The position numbers and the translations under genes were made by a program. Source: a bacterium (lineage in GTDB: Bacteria > Patescibacteriota > Saccharimonadia > Saccharimonadales > AWTP1-31). From it: DNA of 64,000 nucleotides. The notes beneath the pieces were generated by a model, which made no database searches, was not told where the DNA came from, and saw nothing but the letters and a program-made list of their open reading frames with translations. The stretch is taken from assembly GCA_030426125.1 (NCBI GenBank), contig JAUHZB010000002.1, forward strand, positions 3,633 through 67,632, given 5' to 3'. Shown piece by piece: positions 511-21,209 of this stretch (positions are counted from its first letter, which is position 1; the number at the start of each line of letters is the position of its first letter).

Positions 511-1047
511 TTATTTAGTAACTTTAGCTTTGCTAGTGTAGTAATCTCTGACTTGAAATAACAGATAAGCACCAATTGCGCTACCTATAAGTGAACCTAG
601 TAGATTACCAAAGCTACCGAATGATGTTAGGGCTACTACTAGCCCGTATACGACGTTTAACAACATGCTATAGAAGATATAGTTCCAGCCTTTTTTCTGG
701 AATTTTCTTAGTGGTGAAAAAGCCATTAGGTTTAGAATTGAACTAGCTAGAGTTAGCAACAGCGACAATATTAAGAATAGCGACCAACTTCTCCCAAGGC
801 CGGTATTGGCATAGATTCTGTCCAGTTGCTGTCCGTAACCAGTTAGAACGGTTGCGGTCGAGGCATTTACCCAAAGGAAGATGGCATAGGCTGACCACAG
901 TCCAATTATTCCACCGACTAATGAAAGCCAAGGTGCTATTTTTACAATTACCTCCCGCCCACCTTTGGGTATGTTTGGTAGATTGTTATTGAATGTTTTA
1001 TTTAGAGATTGTTCTAAGCCGTCTAGTTGTTTGATAGGATGACCCAT
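511..1047 (-). CDS. integral membrane protein, unknown function
   Basis: 178-aa ORF with several long hydrophobic segments. AAGGAG sits 8 nt upstream of the ATG. Confidence 0.6.
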   Translation of the reverse strand: MGHPIKQLDGLEQSLNKTFNNNLPNIPKGGREVIVKIAPWLSLVGGIIGLWSAYAIFLWVNASTATVLTGYGQQLDRIYANTGLGRSWSLFLILSLLLTLASSILNLMAFSPLRKFQKKGWNYIFYSMLLNVVYGLVVALTSFGSFGNLLGSLIGSAIGAYLLFQVRDYYTSKAKVTK

Positions 1048-1082
1048 ATCTAATACTCCTTCTTAGTTGCTGTTATTGTACT

Positions 1083-1379
1083 CTAAAGAACCACCCCATA
1101 GAAGGATTCTAGTAGTTTGTAGACGACGTATGCTGGCCATACTAGGGCTTTTAGTAGTCCAGTAAGGTAGCCACCGAAATTAGTGGCTGCTTGTGACCAA
1201 TAGATTAGGGCTCCAATAAAACCAACAAAGTACAGAGCTCCACCTGCTCCACTGGAGGACTTGGAATGTTTTTTATGTTCTTTGCACCACTGTTCGAAAT
1301 CTTCTGCTCCACTGAATTTGGCACTAATATCTAGTTTAGGGCTCTCTTTTGAGCTCTTAGTTTTTGTTGCTTTTGGCAT
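1083..1379 (-). CDS. small membrane protein (98 aa)
   Basis: The track start at 1427 lies within a TATAAT box. AGGAG plus 6 nt plus ATG at 1379 gives MPKATKTKSS. The N-terminus is Lys-rich and the C-terminus has two hydrophobic helices. Confidence 0.5.
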   Translation of the reverse strand: MPKATKTKSSKESPKLDISAKFSGAEDFEQWCKEHKKHSKSSSGAGGALYFVGFIGALIYWSQAATNFGGYLTGLLKALVWPAYVVYKLLESFYGVVL

Positions 1380-2319: not shown

Positions 2320-3660
2320 TCATTTTCTGGCTCCATTCTTTATAAAAAAGAAATAGCCGGCTAGTAGCCAGAAGACTAGCACTGCAAGAGATATTCCAAG
2401 TAGCGCCCCTAACCCAAACTCATAGATTATTAACATCGAGCTGGCCGTAAACAAACCTCCGCCAACGATCGGCTCGAATAGTAACTGCTTATAGCCGAAC
2501 AGCTCAATAGCTTGGCTCTTATCTTTGGGGTCAGCGGCATGTATTAGTAGTAGGCCGGTGGCAGTCATACCCATAGATTGGCCGTAGTCACCGATCCCTC
2601 TTTCAAACCAGTAATTGTTAATTATCTTGGGAGCAATAAAGAGAAATGCTAGTAGGTTCCAAACTATGCCAGTAACTGCTAGTAGTACAAATGGCCATAG
2701 ATTATGAGTGATCGAAACGAAAGATATGGTGGCGACCGCAGCAATTATTAGCATTTCTAGAGCCAAGTTAGATATAAAGCCAATGGTGTTGGCTTTTACT
2801 AGTGACTGTAGTTTAAAGAAGCTCAGAAGTGCTTGCACGATAACCCCACCTATCATGGCTAGTGGGAATAGTGGAATGTATGAGAAGAACGCAATCTCTT
2901 CGCTCGGGAACAGTTTAGTTTCAATAGCCAATAAGGACTGTTTAATAATGTAGCCAATAAGGATGGCGATTACGATCAGAGAAATTTGTAGCAAGGTAGC
3001 TTTAATACTGTGTCTAGCCAAGTATTTATTCTGAGTTTGAATAATAAAGGAATGAAGCTTTAGGTTTGAAGGTCGAGTTTTCCTAGCTTTACTTTTTACC
3101 TGGAGGCGTTTGAAGTATAGGTATCGCAGTAATAGACCGGAGGCGATTCCAGTGACTAGCCCAACAGTTGCTAGCCCTAGGGCGATGTCAGCCCCTTCGC
3201 TGAAATTTAGTTTACTAAAAAGGTTTTGTAGGCCCGCTGCTGTACCATGGCCCCCCTCGAAGCTTATTTCAATTAAGGCTCCAGACAAAGGGCTGAAATT
3301 AAAGATTGGCACTAGAACTAGTAGTGCTAGTAAGGATCCAAAAACGTATTGTCCCCAAGCTAGTGTTTGACCGAATACCACCTGTGGGCCAGCAAATCTC
3401 CAGATTTTTCGAGGACTGATTAATCTCTTACCAATAAACAAGGAAGCAAATACGATGTTGATTAGTATCGAGGGTAGTTGGTTCCAGGAATCTAGAAAAG
3501 GTAACGTTACACTGTCTAGTCGCTGAACACCTAATACTAGTAGGCCTAGTAGTACTGCCCCGGGCACTATACTAATGATGGCCGTTTTACGGGCAGCTAA
3601 GAACAAACTAATGATAGCTAAGGAAAAAAGAATGATGTAGCCGATAAGTTGTTCTGACAT
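2320..3660 (-). CDS. gltS: sodium/glutamate symporter (GltS/ESS family)
   Basis: 446-aa polytopic protein. The segments EGGHGTAAGL...FSEGADIALGLATVGLVTG and GDYGQSMGMTATGLLL align by eye with E. coli GltS (SGGHGTGAAW..., GHCGFGLGATPTA). Confidence 0.65.
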   Translation of the reverse strand: MSEQLIGYIILFSLAIISLFLAARKTAIISIVPGAVLLGLLVLGVQRLDSVTLPFLDSWNQLPSILINIVFASLFIGKRLISPRKIWRFAGPQVVFGQTLAWGQYVFGSLLALLVLVPIFNFSPLSGALIEISFEGGHGTAAGLQNLFSKLNFSEGADIALGLATVGLVTGIASGLLLRYLYFKRLQVKSKARKTRPSNLKLHSFIIQTQNKYLARHSIKATLLQISLIVIAILIGYIIKQSLLAIETKLFPSEEIAFFSYIPLFPLAMIGGVIVQALLSFFKLQSLVKANTIGFISNLALEMLIIAAVATISFVSITHNLWPFVLLAVTGIVWNLLAFLFIAPKIINNYWFERGIGDYGQSMGMTATGLLLIHAADPKDKSQAIELFGYKQLLFEPIVGGGLFTASSMLIIYEFGLGALLGISLAVLVFWLLAGYFFFIKNGARK

Positions 3661-3750
3661 AATTGAAGTTTTTGTTTTTATTAGATGCTGCGAAGTTTGA
3701 TGCTTCGGATATCTCCATTATACAGCTAAAGCAATATAACAAAAGTTTGG

Positions 3751-4293
3751 TTAAGATGTGTGGTTATATAGGTTTTGATCAGAAGGCATTAGTTGAATTA
3801 TGGCGTTTCTCAGAGCTTCCTGAAGGCTTATTTCCCTGCTAATATTTCCACCAGTGTAGCGCGACCATGTGTCGCGGTTATCATCAGGTAGTTGGAAATG
3901 GTCGTCATAATATTTCATTATCTTCATGTGACTTTCACCGGCTTTCATCCTTTTGGAAACTACAGCGGGTAGCAGTAAACCGCTGGAATATCCATAATAT
4001 ATTTGATCTTTATCGGATATTACCACTGCCCAAGCCTCTTCGAATAAGTGGCCATAACGTTCAACAAGTCCGCTTTCTATACCAACATAGTAGTTGGCAT
4101 TGCCGATAGCTTGGCACTCTTTGGCTCTGTTTAGCGCCCCCTGGTAGGTTTCTTTGTCAAACGGTGCTTCGGGGACAAGAGACTTTGCGTTATGAGATGC
4201 TACATCAAGACTGGAGGGTTTTAAGATTTCGGTGAATATATCACCAACCACTTTTATCTTTTTCTGGTTCTTGGTGCCAATTAGTATTTTCAT
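3751..4293 (-). CDS. inosine/xanthosine triphosphatase (YjjX-like non-canonical NTPase)
   Basis: MKILIGTKNQKKI...LVPEAPFDKETYQGALNRA...YYVGIESGL parallels E. coli YjjX (ATTNPAKI...GVPEQPFGSEETRAGARNR...VAIEAGI). Confidence 0.65.
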   Translation of the reverse strand: MKILIGTKNQKKIKVVGDIFTEILKPSSLDVASHNAKSLVPEAPFDKETYQGALNRAKECQAIGNANYYVGIESGLVERYGHLFEEAWAVVISDKDQIYYGYSSGLLLPAVVSKRMKAGESHMKIMKYYDDHFQLPDDNRDTWSRYTGGNISREISLQEALRNAIIQLMPSDQNLYNHTS

Positions 4294-15321: not shown

Positions 15322-15364
15322 TACAAAAATGAGACATATGAGACATCATAATAGATGTCTCATT
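15322..15364 (-). terminator. probable terminator of the NTPase-SWIM gene
   Basis: AATGAGACAT (15329-38) pairs with ATGTCTCATT (15355-64). An alternative 10-bp stem is 15338-47/15354-63. A minus-strand T-run follows. Confidence 0.5.
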
Positions 15365-15398: not shown

Positions 15399-16214
15399 TC
15401 AAGGCATACTTAACAATACCGCTTGATAATGGGAGCAATCATCTGCTTTAATATATGGCTTTTTTCCTGAAGCAAGCTTGCAGTCACAAGTCCATCCAGA
15501 AGTACTAATTGTGACATTATGGCGAGCGTTATCGCCATTGACGCTATATTCGTTAACACCTGTTTTGAATACCCGCTCTTCAACTAGGTACCGCAAGGCT
15601 TTACTAAACAATTTGTCCGCTGAAATAAACCTATCTGAACTGATGTAGTTATTTGCTAGTTTTGCGACATCTAAAGCAACTCGCCTGTCGAGTTCGTTAT
15701 AGTATTTTCGATTTTCAAGAGCTATTTGTATTATTCTGGATATATAAATACGGTTAGACTCATTTATTTGAAAGACTATTACATCTTCTCGTTTTAGGAT
15801 TTCTACAGTTAGATCATTGCTAAAGATGCTACTAACACTCGCTAGTAAATCATTGCCAGAATTAATGTATTTCTTCGCTAGCGTAGAAAAGCTATCCGAT
15901 AGCAGCTGCATTTGACCAATCTCATCGATATATAACAGTTCATTTGCTTTTATTCTTTGTAAATCAACAAAACTATAGTTGAGAAATCCATCAATAACAA
16001 AGAATTTTCCAACTTGAAATTTGCCATGTGTATTTGTGCGAGCGAGCCTGATTACTTGGCCTTCAGATGTGGTGATATCGAATCCTATACGAGTACCATT
16101 CTGTCTCAGTTCCTTCGTTACCATGCCTCTTGTTGGCTGTGTGGTGTTGGTAATGTGCTCGAAGATTACAGTGCTTTTCCCTGACTTCGGCGCACCAGTT
16201 ACAAGTATTTTCAT
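15399..16214 (-). CDS. THEP1-type P-loop NTPase fused to a C-terminal SWIM zinc finger
   Basis: Walker A is MKILVTGAPKSGKST. Walker B is LLYIDEIGQMQL. The C-terminal W-T-C-D-C-x14-C-S-H (C243, C245, C260, H262; nt 15429-15488) is a canonical CxC...CxH SWIM pattern. Confidence 0.65.
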   Translation of the reverse strand: MKILVTGAPKSGKSTVIFEHITNTTQPTRGMVTKELRQNGTRIGFDITTSEGQVIRLARTNTHGKFQVGKFFVIDGFLNYSFVDLQRIKANELLYIDEIGQMQLLSDSFSTLAKKYINSGNDLLASVSSIFSNDLTVEILKREDVIVFQINESNRIYISRIIQIALENRKYYNELDRRVALDVAKLANNYISSDRFISADKLFSKALRYLVEERVFKTGVNEYSVNGDNARHNVTISTSGWTCDCKLASGKKPYIKADDCSHYQAVLLSMP

Positions 16215-16232
16215 AATTCAAGATTAGCATGT

Positions 16233-16895
16233 TTGACCTGCTCTTATGATAAAATGCAACGCATGATTCATGTTAAAGCCCTAGATGTAAATAAAGCGTG
16301 GCGAGAAATACTCATAAAGCTACTAAACGATGGCGGTAAGACTGGGAATGATAAATATTTGCGGGACGAGTTTGCTGTAATTGAGATTGATGACCCAGCA
16401 GTTATTCCTGCGGACAAACTATTTCCCATGCTACAAAAAGATCTCGATGTAATAAACGAATACATTCACAGCGGAAACAATGAGAAAGATGTAGTGCACG
16501 AGTGGACAAAACTTTATTATCACCGTGCGTTCGATGAGCCAAATTCACAAATAGAATTTCTTATTAAAAAGCTCGATCCTGAATGGCCCAAAGGTGAGGC
16601 ACAGATATCTATGTGGGACAAGAACGTTGATCAGCATCAAGAAATATCGCCCTGCACCCAAATCATTTGGGCGCGCATAAAACATGGCAAGCTGGAGTTA
16701 CACGTCCATGCAAACTCATCAGACGCTTATAAAAAGCTGCTTATGAATATGCTTGAGTTTATCTCGCTTCAGCATTATATTGCAGAAAAAGTTGGTATCC
16801 CCATTGGGAAGTATGTTCATGCACTGGATTCTTGTCATTTGCACACGAAAGATGTAGACAAAATTAATGAGATAAAAGGACAACTAGCATACTAG
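16233..16895 (+). CDS. minimal thymidylate-synthase-fold protein (ThyA-like, archaeal-size)
   Basis: ISPC(141)TQIIWARIKHGKLELHVHANSSDAYKKLLMNMLEF...HALDSCHLH aligns with ThyA [37 protein letters not shown]...GGDTHLY. It is about 210-220 aa versus about 264 aa for ThyA. The start is ambiguous (16233, 16254 or 16263). Confidence 0.6.
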   Translation: MTCSYDKMQRMIHVKALDVNKAWREILIKLLNDGGKTGNDKYLRDEFAVIEIDDPAVIPADKLFPMLQKDLDVINEYIHSGNNEKDVVHEWTKLYYHRAFDEPNSQIEFLIKKLDPEWPKGEAQISMWDKNVDQHQEISPCTQIIWARIKHGKLELHVHANSSDAYKKLLMNMLEFISLQHYIAEKVGIPIGKYVHALDSCHLHTKDVDKINEIKGQLAY

Positions 16896-16930: not shown

Positions 16931-18139
16931 ATGAATACAGAGGCGTTACTCCCTGGATTGAATCATACGGTAAGAGGTTCTGAGTGCGCGCCCGAAATAA
17001 CCGAAGATTATCGCGAAACACTAAACAAACTAGTTCTTACACACCAAAATGGAGTAACCCATTTTTTGGGTGGTCCACTCGATCTGGATGACGACAAAAA
17101 AGTGTGGCTTTCTCCTGTTGGGGTTGATGACGGCGAGACATACTCATACTTCCAGTTAATCTACGTAAATACAGACCCACTTGAATTGCAAGATGATCCA
17201 GCATCAGTTCCTGCTTCTCTGCTTGAAGTTGATGAAGCTGGTTACAAACTTACACCTCATGATCACCCAGGGTATACCCAGTTAATGAATCAATTTTCGG
17301 GGAAAATGAAGCAAGTTTTGGTTCGTCATTGCAATAGTGGGATGGCATATTACCCTCGAGCAATAACACCAACTCTTGATAAGATGACTATAGATGCTCA
17401 CTTGGATCGTGTTGTTTCGGTACTTGGGATAAGAGAACCTGAAGTTAGCATTACTCTGAGCAAGCCATCTGATGCTGAAGAAATTGACTTGAGTGCAAAC
17501 GTATTGCGCGCCACACACGCAAGGAAATACGCCTTTCGTGGTGCCGAAGTTCATTCATATGGTCTAGTGTTAGATGACGACCCTTGGAAGTATTACGAGG
17601 TGTTTACCCCCCACCCTGTTGAGGATATGCCAAAAGAAGATGTCTTGCTTCGTGTAGACTCAGGTTGTGATATTGGTCAAATCTTTGATGATAGAGGCTG
17701 TGATTGTCGTGAGCAACTGCATACCGCATTGTCTGAAATACAAGACATCGGAACTGGTGCGGTGATTCACATTCCTGCTCAAGATGGACGAGGCTTTGGT
17801 GCGGCTACCAAAATGGAAACTGAGGGTATGAAACGAGGAATCGAGGTCGCGACTAACCTTGGAAATGCCGTACCATATGACACTATAACAGCAGCACAAG
17901 TACTACTTGGTGATGAGTTTGATATCCGAACCTATTCTGGCGCAGGAAGAATACTCAGCATGCTCGGTATCCGTTCAGTTTTCCTTCAAACAGATAATCG
18001 GCTTAAAGCCGAAGGGCTTTCTGAGGGAGGTATATCTGTTACACGTAAGCCGACAAATACAACTGGCGTAAGAGGTGCCGAAAACCACATAGCCGCAAAG
18101 CATAGGCACAACGACATATACTATGGCGATGAGGATTAG
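16931..18139 (+). CDS. GTP-cyclohydrolase-II-like protein with ~190-aa N-terminal extension (URC1-like architecture)
   Basis: Residues about 190-400 align with RibA. LLRVDSGC246-x10-C257DC259 has the same spacing as the E. coli zinc triad. Also DGRGFG and LGIRSVFLQTDN..K. The N-terminal 190 aa are not RibB-like. Confidence 0.65.
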   Translation: MNTEALLPGLNHTVRGSECAPEITEDYRETLNKLVLTHQNGVTHFLGGPLDLDDDKKVWLSPVGVDDGETYSYFQLIYVNTDPLELQDDPASVPASLLEVDEAGYKLTPHDHPGYTQLMNQFSGKMKQVLVRHCNSGMAYYPRAITPTLDKMTIDAHLDRVVSVLGIREPEVSITLSKPSDAEEIDLSANVLRATHARKYAFRGAEVHSYGLVLDDDPWKYYEVFTPHPVEDMPKEDVLLRVDSGCDIGQIFDDRGCDCREQLHTALSEIQDIGTGAVIHIPAQDGRGFGAATKMETEGMKRGIEVATNLGNAVPYDTITAAQVLLGDEFDIRTYSGAGRILSMLGIRSVFLQTDNRLKAEGLSEGGISVTRKPTNTTGVRGAENHIAAKHRHNDIYYGDED

Positions 18140-18151
18140 GATTAGGCTGTC

Positions 18152-19033
18152 ATGACTATAGATGCCACAACTACCTTTAGCTCTCCAGGAATCGAGAAGA
18201 TTCGCAATCGTTGGGTTGAAACTGATTCAATGGCGGGTGTAGGAATTGATCCTGACATTGACAAGATACCGCCCGAGATATGGGGAGAGATTGGTCTGGA
18301 AGGAGACACGGCCGATGCGATTTTCCTTTTCAACAAGATGGTTATTGATGCGACCGTAGATCACGCAGTAGACTTTAAAGTAAATTCAAACTTCTTTCAG
18401 GGTGAACTAGGTCGCAAGGCGCTTGCCACTACTTTCGCATACCTCAAAGAAGAGTACCCAGCAGTCCTAAGAGTTTGCGACGGCAAATTTGCTGACGTTG
18501 GGCATACTGCAGACAAAATTGCTGAAGAAGTATTTGGAGAACTCGATGCGGATGCGGTTCTTTTGAATCCATATTTGGGGTTCGATGCAATACGACCCTT
18601 TACAGACTGGAAGGATAAATTATCAATACTATGCGTCAATACCTCTAATCCATCAGCATCAGAAGTTCAGGGCTTGCCTCTTGCTGGTGGTGTTCCGCTT
18701 TGGAGACACATACTAGAGCTTGGTCTCTCAGACTGGAACTATAATCAAAACGTTGTGCCAGTACTAAGCGCAACTCATGCTAGTAATCTAGAAGGTATAC
18801 GAGACGAAATTGGCGATGTGCCAGTTGTATTGGCGGGCGTCGGGTCTCAAGGTGGCGATCTTGGAGTAAGCGTACCCCACTGCCTGGACGATAGCGGGTA
18901 TGGACTTATGATTAGTGCTTCAAGAGCAATCCTCTACCCTGAGCGAGAACCTGGCGAAAGTCTAGGTGACGCATCAAGGCGGGCTGTAGTTAATTTGAAA
19001 CAAGCTATAAATAATGCAAAAGGAAATGTATGA
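18152..19033 (+). CDS. type-2 orotidine-5'-phosphate-decarboxylase-like protein
   Basis: GVGIDPD, FKVNSNFF, and the catalytic-type D-x-K-x-x-D in VCDGKFADVGHT. At 293 aa it is typical of long (type 2) PyrF. Confidence 0.6.
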   Translation: MTIDATTTFSSPGIEKIRNRWVETDSMAGVGIDPDIDKIPPEIWGEIGLEGDTADAIFLFNKMVIDATVDHAVDFKVNSNFFQGELGRKALATTFAYLKEEYPAVLRVCDGKFADVGHTADKIAEEVFGELDADAVLLNPYLGFDAIRPFTDWKDKLSILCVNTSNPSASEVQGLPLAGGVPLWRHILELGLSDWNYNQNVVPVLSATHASNLEGIRDEIGDVPVVLAGVGSQGGDLGVSVPHCLDDSGYGLMISASRAILYPEREPGESLGDASRRAVVNLKQAINNAKGNV

Positions 19034-19671
19034 GCGAATTTATAGTTACTGCTGAGTCTAGAGAGGCGGAAATGTGTAGGCTCATGGACAGGCATTTGAC
19101 TATGGATCGAGTTTTTGTACTGCTTCTTGGTCCATCTGCTACTGGCAAATCTACGCTAATCCGGGAGATGAATGCTCGATCAGGTGATATTAGCTTTGAG
19201 TATGTAAAACCAACCATGACACGACCCAATCGACCTGGTGAAGTCGATAAAGTGTCTGTATCAGATCAGGAGTTTGATGAGTTAGAGCAATCTGGAAAGT
19301 TCGTTGTTGTTAACGAATTATACGGCGTCAGGTATGGAACGCCATTAGAAGGCATATTGACGCCATTAGCTCAAGGCTCAACTCCCATACTTGACTACCC
19401 TATCGATACGGTAGACCAACTAGAGCGTAGTGAGTATGACATGTTGCGCTTCTATGTGTATCCTGGCTCCACGGAAGAATGGGCATCACGTGTGGAATCT
19501 AGTGGCAGAAATACAGACGGTCGTCTTGAGCGGGGTCTCAAGGAGCTCGGCTCTTTAGCAATTGGAATTGAGCACCCTGCTATTGATGTAAGTATTGTGA
19601 ATGCTGACGGGCAGGCAAACGCAGCAGCCTCAGAGATTCTTTCCGTATTAAGCAGAATTCAACAATCATAG
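19030..19671 (+). CDS. guanylate-kinase-fold nucleoside-monophosphate kinase
   Basis: P-loop LLGPSATGKST. TMTRPNRPGEV compares with HTTRQPRPGEV, and YGVRYGTP with GNYYGTS. ATGA overlap with the upstream gene. Confidence 0.6.
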   Translation: MSEFIVTAESREAEMCRLMDRHLTMDRVFVLLLGPSATGKSTLIREMNARSGDISFEYVKPTMTRPNRPGEVDKVSVSDQEFDELEQSGKFVVVNELYGVRYGTPLEGILTPLAQGSTPILDYPIDTVDQLERSEYDMLRFYVYPGSTEEWASRVESSGRNTDGRLERGLKELGSLAIGIEHPAIDVSIVNADGQANAAASEILSVLSRIQQS

Positions 19672-19686
19672 TTGTTTATTCTTTGG

Positions 19687-20061
19687 TTACTCTTGTCGTG
19701 CTTGGTATTGCTCTGCACTTCTAAATGTCTGTATTGCACCTGGAACGATTCGATAAGCAGCTCGGTCTTCTTGTTTATAAATCATAGGTGTGCCAAGTAT
19801 ACTTTCACACGATCCACATGCCAACGCTCCAGCTTCTTTGATAGTAGTAGCATCTACTTCTCTCTGCTGATCTACCAATTCAGGTGGCCAGACAATTCTG
19901 TCGGCGTAGCACCTTAGCAACCGACCAGGGCCGTCTTTTTGATAAACCATTGTAGGTTCATCGCAGTTTTCGCAAGCTATGTATAGAAACTTAGAAGGAC
20001 CACCACGAGCCTTCGAGAATCTATCCTTAGTTGGTTTGAACTTCTGTCCAGGGAATTCCAT
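19687..20061 (-). CDS. zinc-ribbon-like hypothetical protein
   Basis: ATG 20061 (MEFPGQKF) lies 7 nt after a TATAAT. It has two Cys pairs (CENC ... CGSC). Convergent with the kinase gene, with 15 nt between the stops. Confidence 0.5.
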   Translation of the reverse strand: MEFPGQKFKPTKDRFSKARGGPSKFLYIACENCDEPTMVYQKDGPGRLLRCYADRIVWPPELVDQQREVDATTIKEAGALACGSCESILGTPMIYKQEDRAAYRIVPGAIQTFRSAEQYQARQE

Positions 20062-20486: not shown

Positions 20487-20561
20487 TGGCTCCCGGGGTC
20501 GGATTCGAACCGACAACCTCGAAGTTAACAGCTTCTTGCTCCACCGTTGAGCTACCCGGGA
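20487..20561 (-). tRNA. tRNA-Asn (anticodon GUU), CCA encoded
   Basis: Manual cloverleaf. Acceptor TCCCGGG/CCCGGGA. D-arm GCTC-AACGGTG-GAGC. Anticodon loop CTGTTAA. T-arm GTCGG-TTCGAAT-CCGAC. Discriminator G plus CCA. Confidence 0.9.
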
Positions 20562-20663: not shown

Positions 20664-21209
20664 TTAAACAAGATCAAACATTGTTAGCCAACCTTTGGCA
20701 GAAATTGGGTATTTAGGATCTCCCTGCTTCATGCCCTCGACAACCGTCTTTTTATCCACCCACTGAAGCTGTTCTACTTCTTCGGGTTGTGCTTTGAACT
20801 TTTCTATCGGCCAGTCACAGTAAATCCGGTAACCTTGGGCTAATCTGGAACCTACCCCTGCTTTGTACAGTACTTGCTTGGCCTTAATTAGCTTAAAGTC
20901 ATCGAGTCCAATTTCTTCTTGAACTTCCCTTGTTGCTGTATCGAGGTAGCTATCGTCATTTTCTACCGTGCCCTCAACAGCACAGGTCCAAAGTCCAGGA
21001 CCTAGACGCTTTTTTAGTGAACGTTGTTGGAGTAGTACCTGCCCTTTTGAGTTTTCTATCCAGACACAGATAATCTTCCAAGTATATTCATCTGTTAATT
21101 GTGAGCGCCTTACTTTTTTAATAGTTTTTCCGTTTGGATCAACCACAGCAACTAATTCGTTGCTATCACTAGGGTTGTTGTCTATTTGCTTGGTTTTGTC
21201 GCTACTCAT
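20664..21209 (-). CDS. NUDIX hydrolase
   Basis: Nudix box GTVENDDSYLDTATREVQEEIGL (Gx5Ex7REUxEExGU). Confidence 0.8.
   Translation of the reverse strand: MSSDKTKQIDNNPSDSNELVAVVDPNGKTIKKVRRSQLTDEYTWKIICVWIENSKGQVLLQQRSLKKRLGPGLWTCAVEGTVENDDSYLDTATREVQEEIGLDDFKLIKAKQVLYKAGVGSRLAQGYRIYCDWPIEKFKAQPEEVEQLQWVDKKTVVEGMKQGDPKYPISAKGWLTMFDLV

Follow-up and report, generated by a model that had tools for sequence, protein, structure and literature searches.

THEP1 of Aquifex aeolicus and human NTPCR (HCR-NTPase) belong to a group of P-loop nucleoside triphosphatases (NTPases; COG1618) that is conserved from Aquifex to humans and has no known physiological role. THEP1 is a variant of the RecA fold whose function is unknown (PMC1079890); THEP1 and NTPCR hydrolyze NTPs slowly in vitro, and their role in vivo is unknown (PMC1079890; PMC2700126). 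The canonical proteins are composed of a single domain of ~170-190 aa. To our knowledge, the SWIM zinc finger (PF04434; CxCxnCxH) is found in MuDR transposases, SNF2 ATPases, MEKK1, ZSWIM proteins, and Shu2, all of them contexts without THEP1-type NTPases. In Shu2, the finger packs against Shu1, a RecA-fold paralogue of Rad51, via protein-protein contacts (PMC5727457). Here, we describe a gene from a 64,000-nucleotide stretch (the window) of a Saccharimonadales genome (contig JAUHZB010000002.1), whose product, referred to as NTPase-SWIM, is predicted to join a THEP1/NTPCR-type NTPase domain and a SWIM-type finger in one chain; whereas the Shu2 finger meets a separate RecA-fold partner, the finger is fused here to a variant of that fold. 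In the clade to which this form of the protein belongs, the gene is linked to an operon of nucleotide enzymes, and its constant partner there encodes a GTP cyclohydrolase II-like (GCHII-like) protein. The fusion and this neighborhood of nucleotide enzymes provide a testable context for THEP1/NTPCR. A literature search returned no paper naming THEP1 together with SWIM, in line with a preliminary description of this DNA that knew of no such fusion. The gene and the parts of its product are located as follows.

15399-16214, minus strand: the NTPase-SWIM gene, an open reading frame (ORF) of 271 codons plus a stop codon, with its ATG at 16214
15729-16214, minus strand: predicted THEP1/NTPCR-type P-loop NTPase domain, residues 1-162, by Pfam PF03266 and Foldseek
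16170-16196, minus strand: Walker A motif GAPKSGKST, residues 7-15
15915-15938, minus strand: Walker B motif LLYIDEIG, residues 93-100
15582-15686, minus strand: predicted helical hairpin, residues ~177-211, present in the long form only (defined below)
15402-15575, minus strand: putative SWIM-type zinc-finger module, residues ~214-271, with the CxC-x14-CxH core at 15429-15488

The ORF, both Walker motifs, and the CxC-x14-CxH core at these positions agree with the preliminary description (ORF and alignment check), although the gene had been extended there to 16232 by the inclusion of 18 nt of intergenic DNA; the ORF ends at 16214. A protein identical to NTPase-SWIM is present in public collections (P0001), and the source annotation, if any, reads "nucleoside-triphosphatase" or THEP1 only. 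The Pfam model NTPase_1 (PF03266) matched residues 2-162 with an E value of 4.2e-27 and 95.5 bits against a cutoff of 23.9, covering model positions 1-167 of 168. The N-terminal 162 residues thereby match the whole of PF03266 and share with THEP1 (aq_1292; 1YE8) and NTPCR (2I3B) the signatures GxxxSGKST, GF.T.E.R..G.R.GF, and hhhhDEIGxM. Compared to this, the NCBIfam equivalog model PRK13695 scored 105.8 bits, under its cutoff of 156; by these profile scores, NTPase-SWIM is a member of the NTPase_1 family but not a PRK13695 equivalog. An AlphaFold2 (AF2) model of the protein, with 27 homologues as input, reached a predicted local distance difference test score (pLDDT) of 94.1 and a predicted template modeling score (pTM) of 0.90, and its best PDB matches in Foldseek were Aquifex THEP1 (1YE8; E=1.9e-10) and human NTPCR (2I3B; E=1.9e-9), with template modeling (TM) scores normalized to the target of 0.80 and 0.70, respectively. 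Because of the Pfam match and because 1YE8 and 2I3B are the best structural matches, the N-terminal two-thirds of NTPase-SWIM is, by profile and by model, an orthodox THEP1/NTPCR NTPase. Alignment A1, which comprises the window protein and 27 homologues at 30-43% identity and is the source of all residues called invariant here, shows G7, S11, G12, K13, S14, and T15 of Walker A and Y95, D97, E98, I99, and G100 of Walker B to be invariant. With both Walker motifs intact, the NTPase looks active and is predicted to hydrolyze its nucleotide.

Compared to the canonical THEP1/NTPCR proteins, NTPase-SWIM adds ~110 residues, made up of the hairpin and the SWIM-type finger. In the AF2 model, the NTPase domain is followed by two long helices (177-192 and 196-211), four beta-strands (215-243), a loop, and a last helix (261-269). 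The last strand ends in CxC and the last helix begins with CxH, an arrangement that, as modeled, would suit a SWIM finger. The ligand set C243-x-C245-x14-C260-x-H262 maps to nt 15429-15488. C243, C245, C260, S261, and H262 are invariant in the 27 homologues, with W241 almost so, and the CxC...CxH motif was also seen in 42 loci of other genomes. Because the ligands are invariant and the motif recurs in those loci, CxC-x14-CxH is, as judged from the aligned proteins, no chance pattern, and the preliminary description's own proviso, that the Cys/His pattern might not be conserved in homologues, does not apply. The CCCH site is predicted to bind zinc.

Two forms of the family are distinguished here: the long form, to which the window protein belongs, has CxC-x14-CxH and the hairpin, while the short form has CxC-x8-CxH and lacks the hairpin. 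The hairpin gave weak tetratricopeptide repeat (TPR)-like matches in profile searches, and its region is deleted in the short-form homologues of A1. With n=14 and n=8, respectively, both forms keep to the spacing of 6-16 that is typical of SWIM (PMC5727457). The Pfam SWIM model matched 8 of the 27 aligned homologues, all 8 of the short form (CxC-x8-CxH, ~232-246 aa); three of these, P0029 (23.1 bits), P0020 (21.4), and P0034 (19.9), exceed the PF04434 cutoff of 19.6 bits, and five others are below threshold. Both domains are thus known ones, and Pfam itself recognizes NTPase_1 plus SWIM in some short-form members, from which SWIM membership of the window protein would follow by homology transfer. 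Altogether, the PF03266 match, the invariant CCCH ligands, and the short-form PF04434 matches uphold the original assignment of a THEP1-like NTPase with a C-terminal SWIM-type finger. The net charge of the C-terminal module ranges across the family from -4 to +8, i.e., from acidic to basic, and by this measure gives no support to general nucleic-acid binding. Since the range makes the test uninformative, an argument for nucleic-acid binding from charge was dropped.

By sequence, the NTPase_1-SWIM fusion is real, conserved, and not rare. When the long-form C-terminal module was used as the profile in an exhaustive search, 234 clusters (50% identity) were retrieved at E<=1e-3. Almost all share the architecture of the window protein: they are 265-290 aa long, and the module lies at residues ~160-280. 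Scanning a single genome for each GTDB species gave 147 relatives; 80 were kept, about 40 of them with a CxC...CxH tail. The long form is found in Saccharibacteria/Saccharimonadales-type metagenome-assembled genomes (MAGs). The short form is found in other Patescibacteria, the candidate phyla radiation (CPR), namely Paceibacteria, Gracilibacteria, and Uhr-, Nomura-, Azam-, Specht-, Taylor-, Berkel-, and Peribacteria, as well as in DPANN archaea (Woese-, Pace-, and Nanoarchaeia). A few fused-form MAGs are labeled Gammaproteobacteria, Methanosarcinales, or Paenibacillaceae; these are automatically named co-assembly bins and the labels are doubtful. These doubtfully labeled MAGs aside, the NTPase-SWIM family appears confined to Patescibacteria and DPANN archaea, whereas plain NTPase_1 proteins of ~170 aa with no finger occur in Desulfobacterota, Asgard archaea, and some CPR genomes, among others. 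In a metagenomic representative of 318 aa (P0147), the order is reversed, with the hairpin-SWIM part at residues 15-117 and a divergent NTPase_1 domain at 129-303; the NTPase and SWIM parts are therefore coupled in either order. In another locus (L012, 8001-9341, plus strand), a seamless protein of 446 aa consists of NTPase_1, hairpin-SWIM, and an ADP-ribose-pyrophosphatase-like Nudix domain, with no start codon ahead of the Nudix part.

In the window, the NTPase-SWIM gene faces four tightly packed genes, beyond which lies a small convergent gene.

16263-16895, plus strand: ThyA-like gene of the short archaeal-type thymidylate synthase family (Pfam Thymidylat_synt, E=2.5e-10)
16931-18139, plus strand: GCHII-like gene, 402 aa, with Pfam GTP_cyclohydro2 at residues 234-372
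18152-19033, plus strand: PyrF gene of subfamily 2 (orotidine monophosphate decarboxylase; TIGR02127, 142 bits against a cutoff of 110.6)
19030-19671, plus strand: guanylate-kinase/PhnN-like P-loop kinase gene (Pfam Guanylate_kin, E=2e-13)
19687-20061, minus strand: gene for a zinc-ribbon protein, "ZR", of 124 aa with two CxxC pairs, convergent with the operon end

Linkage of the long form to the GCHII-like module was observed in approximately 15 of 18 loci, in divergent orientation. The arrangement is as in the window in L001/L008, L003, L009, L010, L011, L014, L092, L097 (partial), L100, L102, and L103, while in L002 the ThyA-like gene at the contig end is the sole operon gene visible. NTPase-SWIM proteins of the linked loci share 31-43% identity, and the outer flanks vary between these loci. 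In two loci (L093 and L101), the NTPase-SWIM gene diverges from the GCHII-like gene with no ThyA-like gene between them; L101 is also without PyrF and the kinase, and L093 is too short to show genes past the GCHII-like one. The GCHII-like gene is thus the sole partner in both, and the ThyA-like gene is present in most, not all, linked loci. Because the pair persists in L093 and L101 without a ThyA-like gene, the constant partner of long-form NTPase-SWIM is the GCHII-like rather than the ThyA-like gene. The operon is missing from three long-form loci: in L004 the gene is divergent from a Maf gene, L005 has no related neighbor, and L012 carries the Nudix fusion described above. The ZR gene follows the kinase gene in L001, L003, L009-L011, L091, L092, L100, and L103.

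Two independent lineages of the short form repeat parts of the same neighborhood, with the genes rearranged. Immediately upstream of the NTPase-SWIM gene of L029 lies a gene (467-1615) for a ZR-GCHII fusion protein. In L020, genes for ZR (ZR-related coordinates 326-619 and 3448-3765), Maf, NTPase-SWIM, cytidylate kinase, and the GCHII-like protein stand together, and in its close relative L023, genes for ZR, Maf, and NTPase-SWIM are accompanied by a partial match to cytidylate kinase. The Maf-family nucleotide pyrophosphatase gene adjoins NTPase-SWIM in one long-form locus (L004, 6324-6956) and in these two closely related short-form loci (L020, 621-1196; L023, 3150-3725). The NTPase-SWIM gene of L041 shares its 3' end with an overlapping Nudix gene, and a PyrF gene lies 1.4 kb off. 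Because the association recurs with rearrangement and fusion, we regard it as a functional link and not as frozen synteny; the link is broadly one to nucleotide enzymes and, within the long-form clade, more specifically one to the GCHII-like module. The linkage to the GCHII-like operon is real but specific to the long-form, Saccharibacteria-type clade. The claim of linkage to the adjacent operon in the preliminary description therefore stands for approximately 15 of the 18 long-form loci, with the GCHII-like and not the ThyA-like gene as the constant member, and fails for most short-form loci. Its remark that a fusion widespread without linkage would speak against such a connection holds in part, given the 234 long-form clusters and the broad short form, most of whose loci are unlinked. 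A separate candidate, association with S-adenosylmethionine (SAM)-dependent methyltransferase genes (L005, L006, L007), was rejected, as the three methyltransferases are non-homologous and missing from other loci.

Of the partners, the GCHII-like protein shares with RibA (GTP cyclohydrolase II) the GTP_cyclohydro2 domain and a C-x10-C-x-C zinc motif, which is kept in orthologues that are 56-80% identical. Unlike RibA, it has an extra N-terminal domain of 230 aa, highly conserved and without a Pfam match, or an N-terminal zinc ribbon as in L029, and it sits with PyrF, kinase, and ThyA-like genes rather than with riboflavin genes. It scores far under the RibA equivalog cutoffs of NCBIfam, and its substrate is probably not that of the riboflavin pathway. 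The ThyA-like protein likewise falls under the cutoff of its closest model (TIGR03283, 67.5 bits), and the kinase under those of both the guanylate-kinase and the PhnN models of NCBIfam. ZR carries the motif YQKDGxGxLxRxYxDRI, is 57-82% identical at the operon end, and belongs to a family with no Pfam domain and no functional name in databases, apart from two JGI entries labeled ribosomal protein S27E. A literature search found no paper on the GCHII-like/ThyA-like/PyrF/kinase operon in Saccharibacteria; the locus brings to light a nucleotide module of five to six genes, conserved in Saccharibacteria-type genomes and uncharacterized in its chemistry.

The NTPase-SWIM and ThyA-like genes are transcribed divergently from a short shared region, whose promoter elements were compared in an alignment of seven orthologous intergenic regions.

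16221-16229, minus strand: putative extended -10 box TGCTAATCT, 6 nt upstream of the NTPase-SWIM start; putative leaderless promoter
16247-16255, plus strand: putative extended -10 box TGATAAAAT, 7 nt upstream of the ThyA-like ATG at 16263

The ThyA-like start is most likely ATG 16263 (MIHV..., as in orthologues) and not TTG 16233 or ATG 16254, which sets the start-to-start gap at 48 nt (16215-16262) instead of the 18-39 nt given in the preliminary description. The NTPase-side box, TGnTAnnnT, is kept 6-7 nt upstream of the start in the 7 orthologous loci. The ThyA-side box, TGnTAAAAT, which reads ATTTTAnCA on the opposite strand (alignment A4), is also conserved, mostly 6-7 nt upstream of the start and 9 nt in L092. 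The two boxes stand back-to-back, 17 bp apart, and the seven aligned regions contain no Shine-Dalgarno sequence upstream of either gene. Because each -10 box ends 6-7 nt before the start codon, transcription would begin at or next to the A of the ATG, and by this established promoter geometry both divergent mRNAs are probably leaderless; on the same spacing, the two RNA polymerase binding sites must overlap. These results are in keeping with the earlier proposal of overlapping or leaderless promoters. A scan of the intergenic region with the sigma-70 consensus gave nothing above shuffled expectation, and the promoter assignment consequently rests on comparative conservation. The layout is not special to this gene pair. 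Across the window, TGnTAnnnT-N6-7-RTG occurs at 16 sites, 9 of which open ORFs of at least 80 aa, as against 15% of all RTG codons; in 7 of these 9 ORFs, among them those of an LD-carboxypeptidase (15175) and a Nudix hydrolase (21209), a stop codon precedes the start by no more than 10 codons. From this layout, leaderless transcription would seem to be common in the source genome.

From these data, we propose that NTPase-SWIM acts as an accessory nucleotide hydrolase or nucleotide-state switch in nucleotide salvage or pool processing, docked through its SWIM module, a reading to which we give about an even chance. The NTPase domain would hydrolyze NTP to NDP and inorganic phosphate, and the SWIM module would serve as a docking surface that tethers it to a partner. 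In the source genome and its relatives, this partner would be the module centered on the GCHII-like protein, which further includes ZR, PyrF, the guanylate-kinase-like kinase, and the ThyA-like protein, with docking to the GCHII-like protein or to ZR; the two back-to-back extended -10 promoters, 17 bp apart, would couple expression of NTPase-SWIM and the operon. An accessory NTPase of nucleotide-pool processing is the most economical reading because all recurring neighbors, i.e., the GCHII-like protein, nucleoside monophosphate kinases, PyrF, the ThyA-like protein, Maf, and Nudix proteins, act on nucleotide phosphates or bases. It also fits the source lineage, since Saccharibacteria-type organisms are widely thought to rely on scavenged nucleotides. 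Of the two roles offered in the preliminary description, that of a fifth component of the operon is better supported than that of a sensor or regulator, as the association with GCHII-like, ZR, Maf, and Nudix genes recurs rearranged in distant lineages.

Several results weigh against this proposal. No conserved neighbor at all accompanies NTPase-SWIM in about 30 short-form loci, which come from a diverse set of CPR and DPANN genomes, and the core role of the family therefore cannot depend on the operon. Conversely, the operon occurs without NTPase-SWIM in the divergent slot in L088, L091, and L098 (in L091 the ThyA-like gene is also missing and ZR is present). NTPase-SWIM diverges much faster than the operon (31-43% identity versus 53-80% for the GCHII-like protein), a pace that fits an adaptor or regulator at least as well as an enzyme, and better than a core enzyme. 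As for docking through SWIM, PF04434 did not match NTPase-SWIM, either as the whole protein or as the C terminus alone, nor any of 13 other long-form C-terminal regions, even at E<=10; six extra residues in the ligand loop probably explain this miss on the long form. Foldseek with the C-terminal module found no solved structure resembling it, so that neither by sequence nor by Foldseek was similarity to solved SWIM structures detected. The C-terminal profile gave weak TPR-like PDB matches to the hairpin alone and no SWIM chain, and in a word-indexed protein search it retrieved fragments of the same family only, with no bridge to other architectures.

The divergent layout and very short intergenic region, which are typical of regulator/operon pairs, would suit a nucleotide-sensing transcription regulator, in which the NTPase domain reads the ATP or GTP state and the SWIM finger and hairpin bind the 48-bp shared promoter region, controlling both the operon and their own gene. 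Such a protein might well evolve faster than the operon enzymes, variable neighborhoods like those of the short form are expected of a regulator family, and binding to DNA or to proteins was the original prediction for SWIM (quoted in PMC5727457). In the orthologous loci, moreover, a conserved AACAGAT-like core lies between the two -10 boxes, but this motif is poorly kept in the window, the C-terminal module is not consistently basic, and Pfam-type domain scans revealed no helix-turn-helix or other known bacterial DNA-binding fold. An experimentally solved SWIM contact, Shu2-Shu1, is protein-protein (PMC5727457), and the Nudix fusion of L012 and the Maf adjacency suit an enzyme partner better than a transcription factor. 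We consider a regulator unlikely. NTPase-SWIM could instead be an unrelated housekeeping NTPase, e.g., one associated with RNA or the ribosome, whose adjacency to the operon is inherited synteny without functional meaning. Adjacency that persists although protein identity is down to 31-43% and the outer flanks have been reshuffled, and that outlasts loss of the ThyA-like gene (L093) and of the ThyA-like, PyrF, and kinase genes together (L101), speaks against this explanation, as do recurrence in another gene order, with a ZR-GCHII fusion, in distant short-form lineages, and the fact that the further recurring neighbors or fusion partners (Maf, Nudix, cytidylate kinase) are also nucleotide enzymes. 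The housekeeping role, which we find no less doubtful than the regulator, would on the other hand account for the missing link in most short-form loci and for operons that lack the NTPase-SWIM gene. From the surface charge of THEP1, the authors of its structure suggested that the protein modifies DNA or RNA (PMC1079890), and weak P-loop similarity to KTI12 and other RNA-related NTPases was found.

That P-loop NTPases can act as metal-insertion factors is well established (G3E family), and we consider very improbable, but set out for completeness, a metallochaperone-like NTPase whose Cys/His site holds zinc for delivery to the GCHII-like protein or ZR, driven by NTP hydrolysis. The NTPase is of the THEP1 and not the G3E type, with cobW matches that reflect weak P-loop similarity only; the invariant, buried CCCH site looks structural rather than exchangeable; and most family members have no zinc enzyme nearby, even though the most constant neighbor in the long-form clade is a predicted zinc enzyme that keeps its C-x10-C-x-C motif and ZR has two CxxC pairs. 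Returning to the accessory NTPase of nucleotide-pool processing, a far-reaching version of it would make NTPase-SWIM, ZR, and the GCHII-like protein the core of an unrecognized nucleotide-processing system of host-dependent ultrasmall bacteria without de novo nucleotide synthesis, with the THEP1-type NTPase as a SWIM-docked switch or subunit gating how the GCHII-like protein, PyrF, the kinase, and the ThyA-like protein convert or sanitize scavenged nucleotides. We offer this version tentatively and think it improbable as it stands; if true, it would give THEP1/NTPCR, of unknown function since 2003, a first physiological context.

Two other origins or roles of NTPase-SWIM were rejected. In a PADLOC scan of six proteins (NTPase-SWIM and its neighbors), nothing was returned for NTPase-SWIM and the kinase gave a weak P-loop match to mad8 (E=1e-4); for want of matches beyond this weak similarity, an anti-phage defense reading was rejected. 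Relatives of NTPase-SWIM and of the GCHII-like protein were looked for in IMG/VR and none were found, on which ground a phage or mobile origin was rejected.

Further observations concern the surroundings of the genes above. In L088, the divergent slot (539-1207, minus strand) is taken by a QueC-like PP-loop ATPase (SGGxDS) of 222 aa whose C terminus carries a Cys cluster; another protein that uses ATP and binds zinc may thus stand in for NTPase-SWIM there as a non-orthologous replacement. On the 3' side of the NTPase-SWIM stop codon, a short hairpin, GCGAG-CGT-CTCGC, follows directly, and an 8-bp inverted repeat, GAGACATC-N6-GATGTCTC, lies at 15340-15361 (minus strand) with a T-run 10 nt further. 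Together, these may form the terminator of a monocistronic NTPase-SWIM transcript; neither was called in the terminator scan. Beyond the ZR gene are a tRNA gene (20490-20561, minus strand) and a Nudix hydrolase ORF (20664-21209, minus strand); in other loci (L006, L012, L041), Nudix genes lie near or are fused to NTPase-SWIM.

Examples of start codons preceded by the -10 box in the window are 4293(-), 8521(-), 15175(-), 16214(-), 16263(+), 21209(-), 46745(-), and 49774(+). Back-to-back extended -10 boxes near start codons also hint at widespread leaderless transcription across the lineage. They are useful for gene-start annotation, and several database homologues of NTPase-SWIM seem to carry a spurious N-terminal extension of 8 residues derived from the promoter. 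The N-terminal "MTCYDSS..." of P0006, P0007, and P0009-P0012 (L003, 6001-6027) is a stretch of the conserved TGCTATGAT promoter box and probably reflects a mis-called start. In L011, a stop codon falls inside this stretch, and the gene starts at a GTG (VKLLITG).

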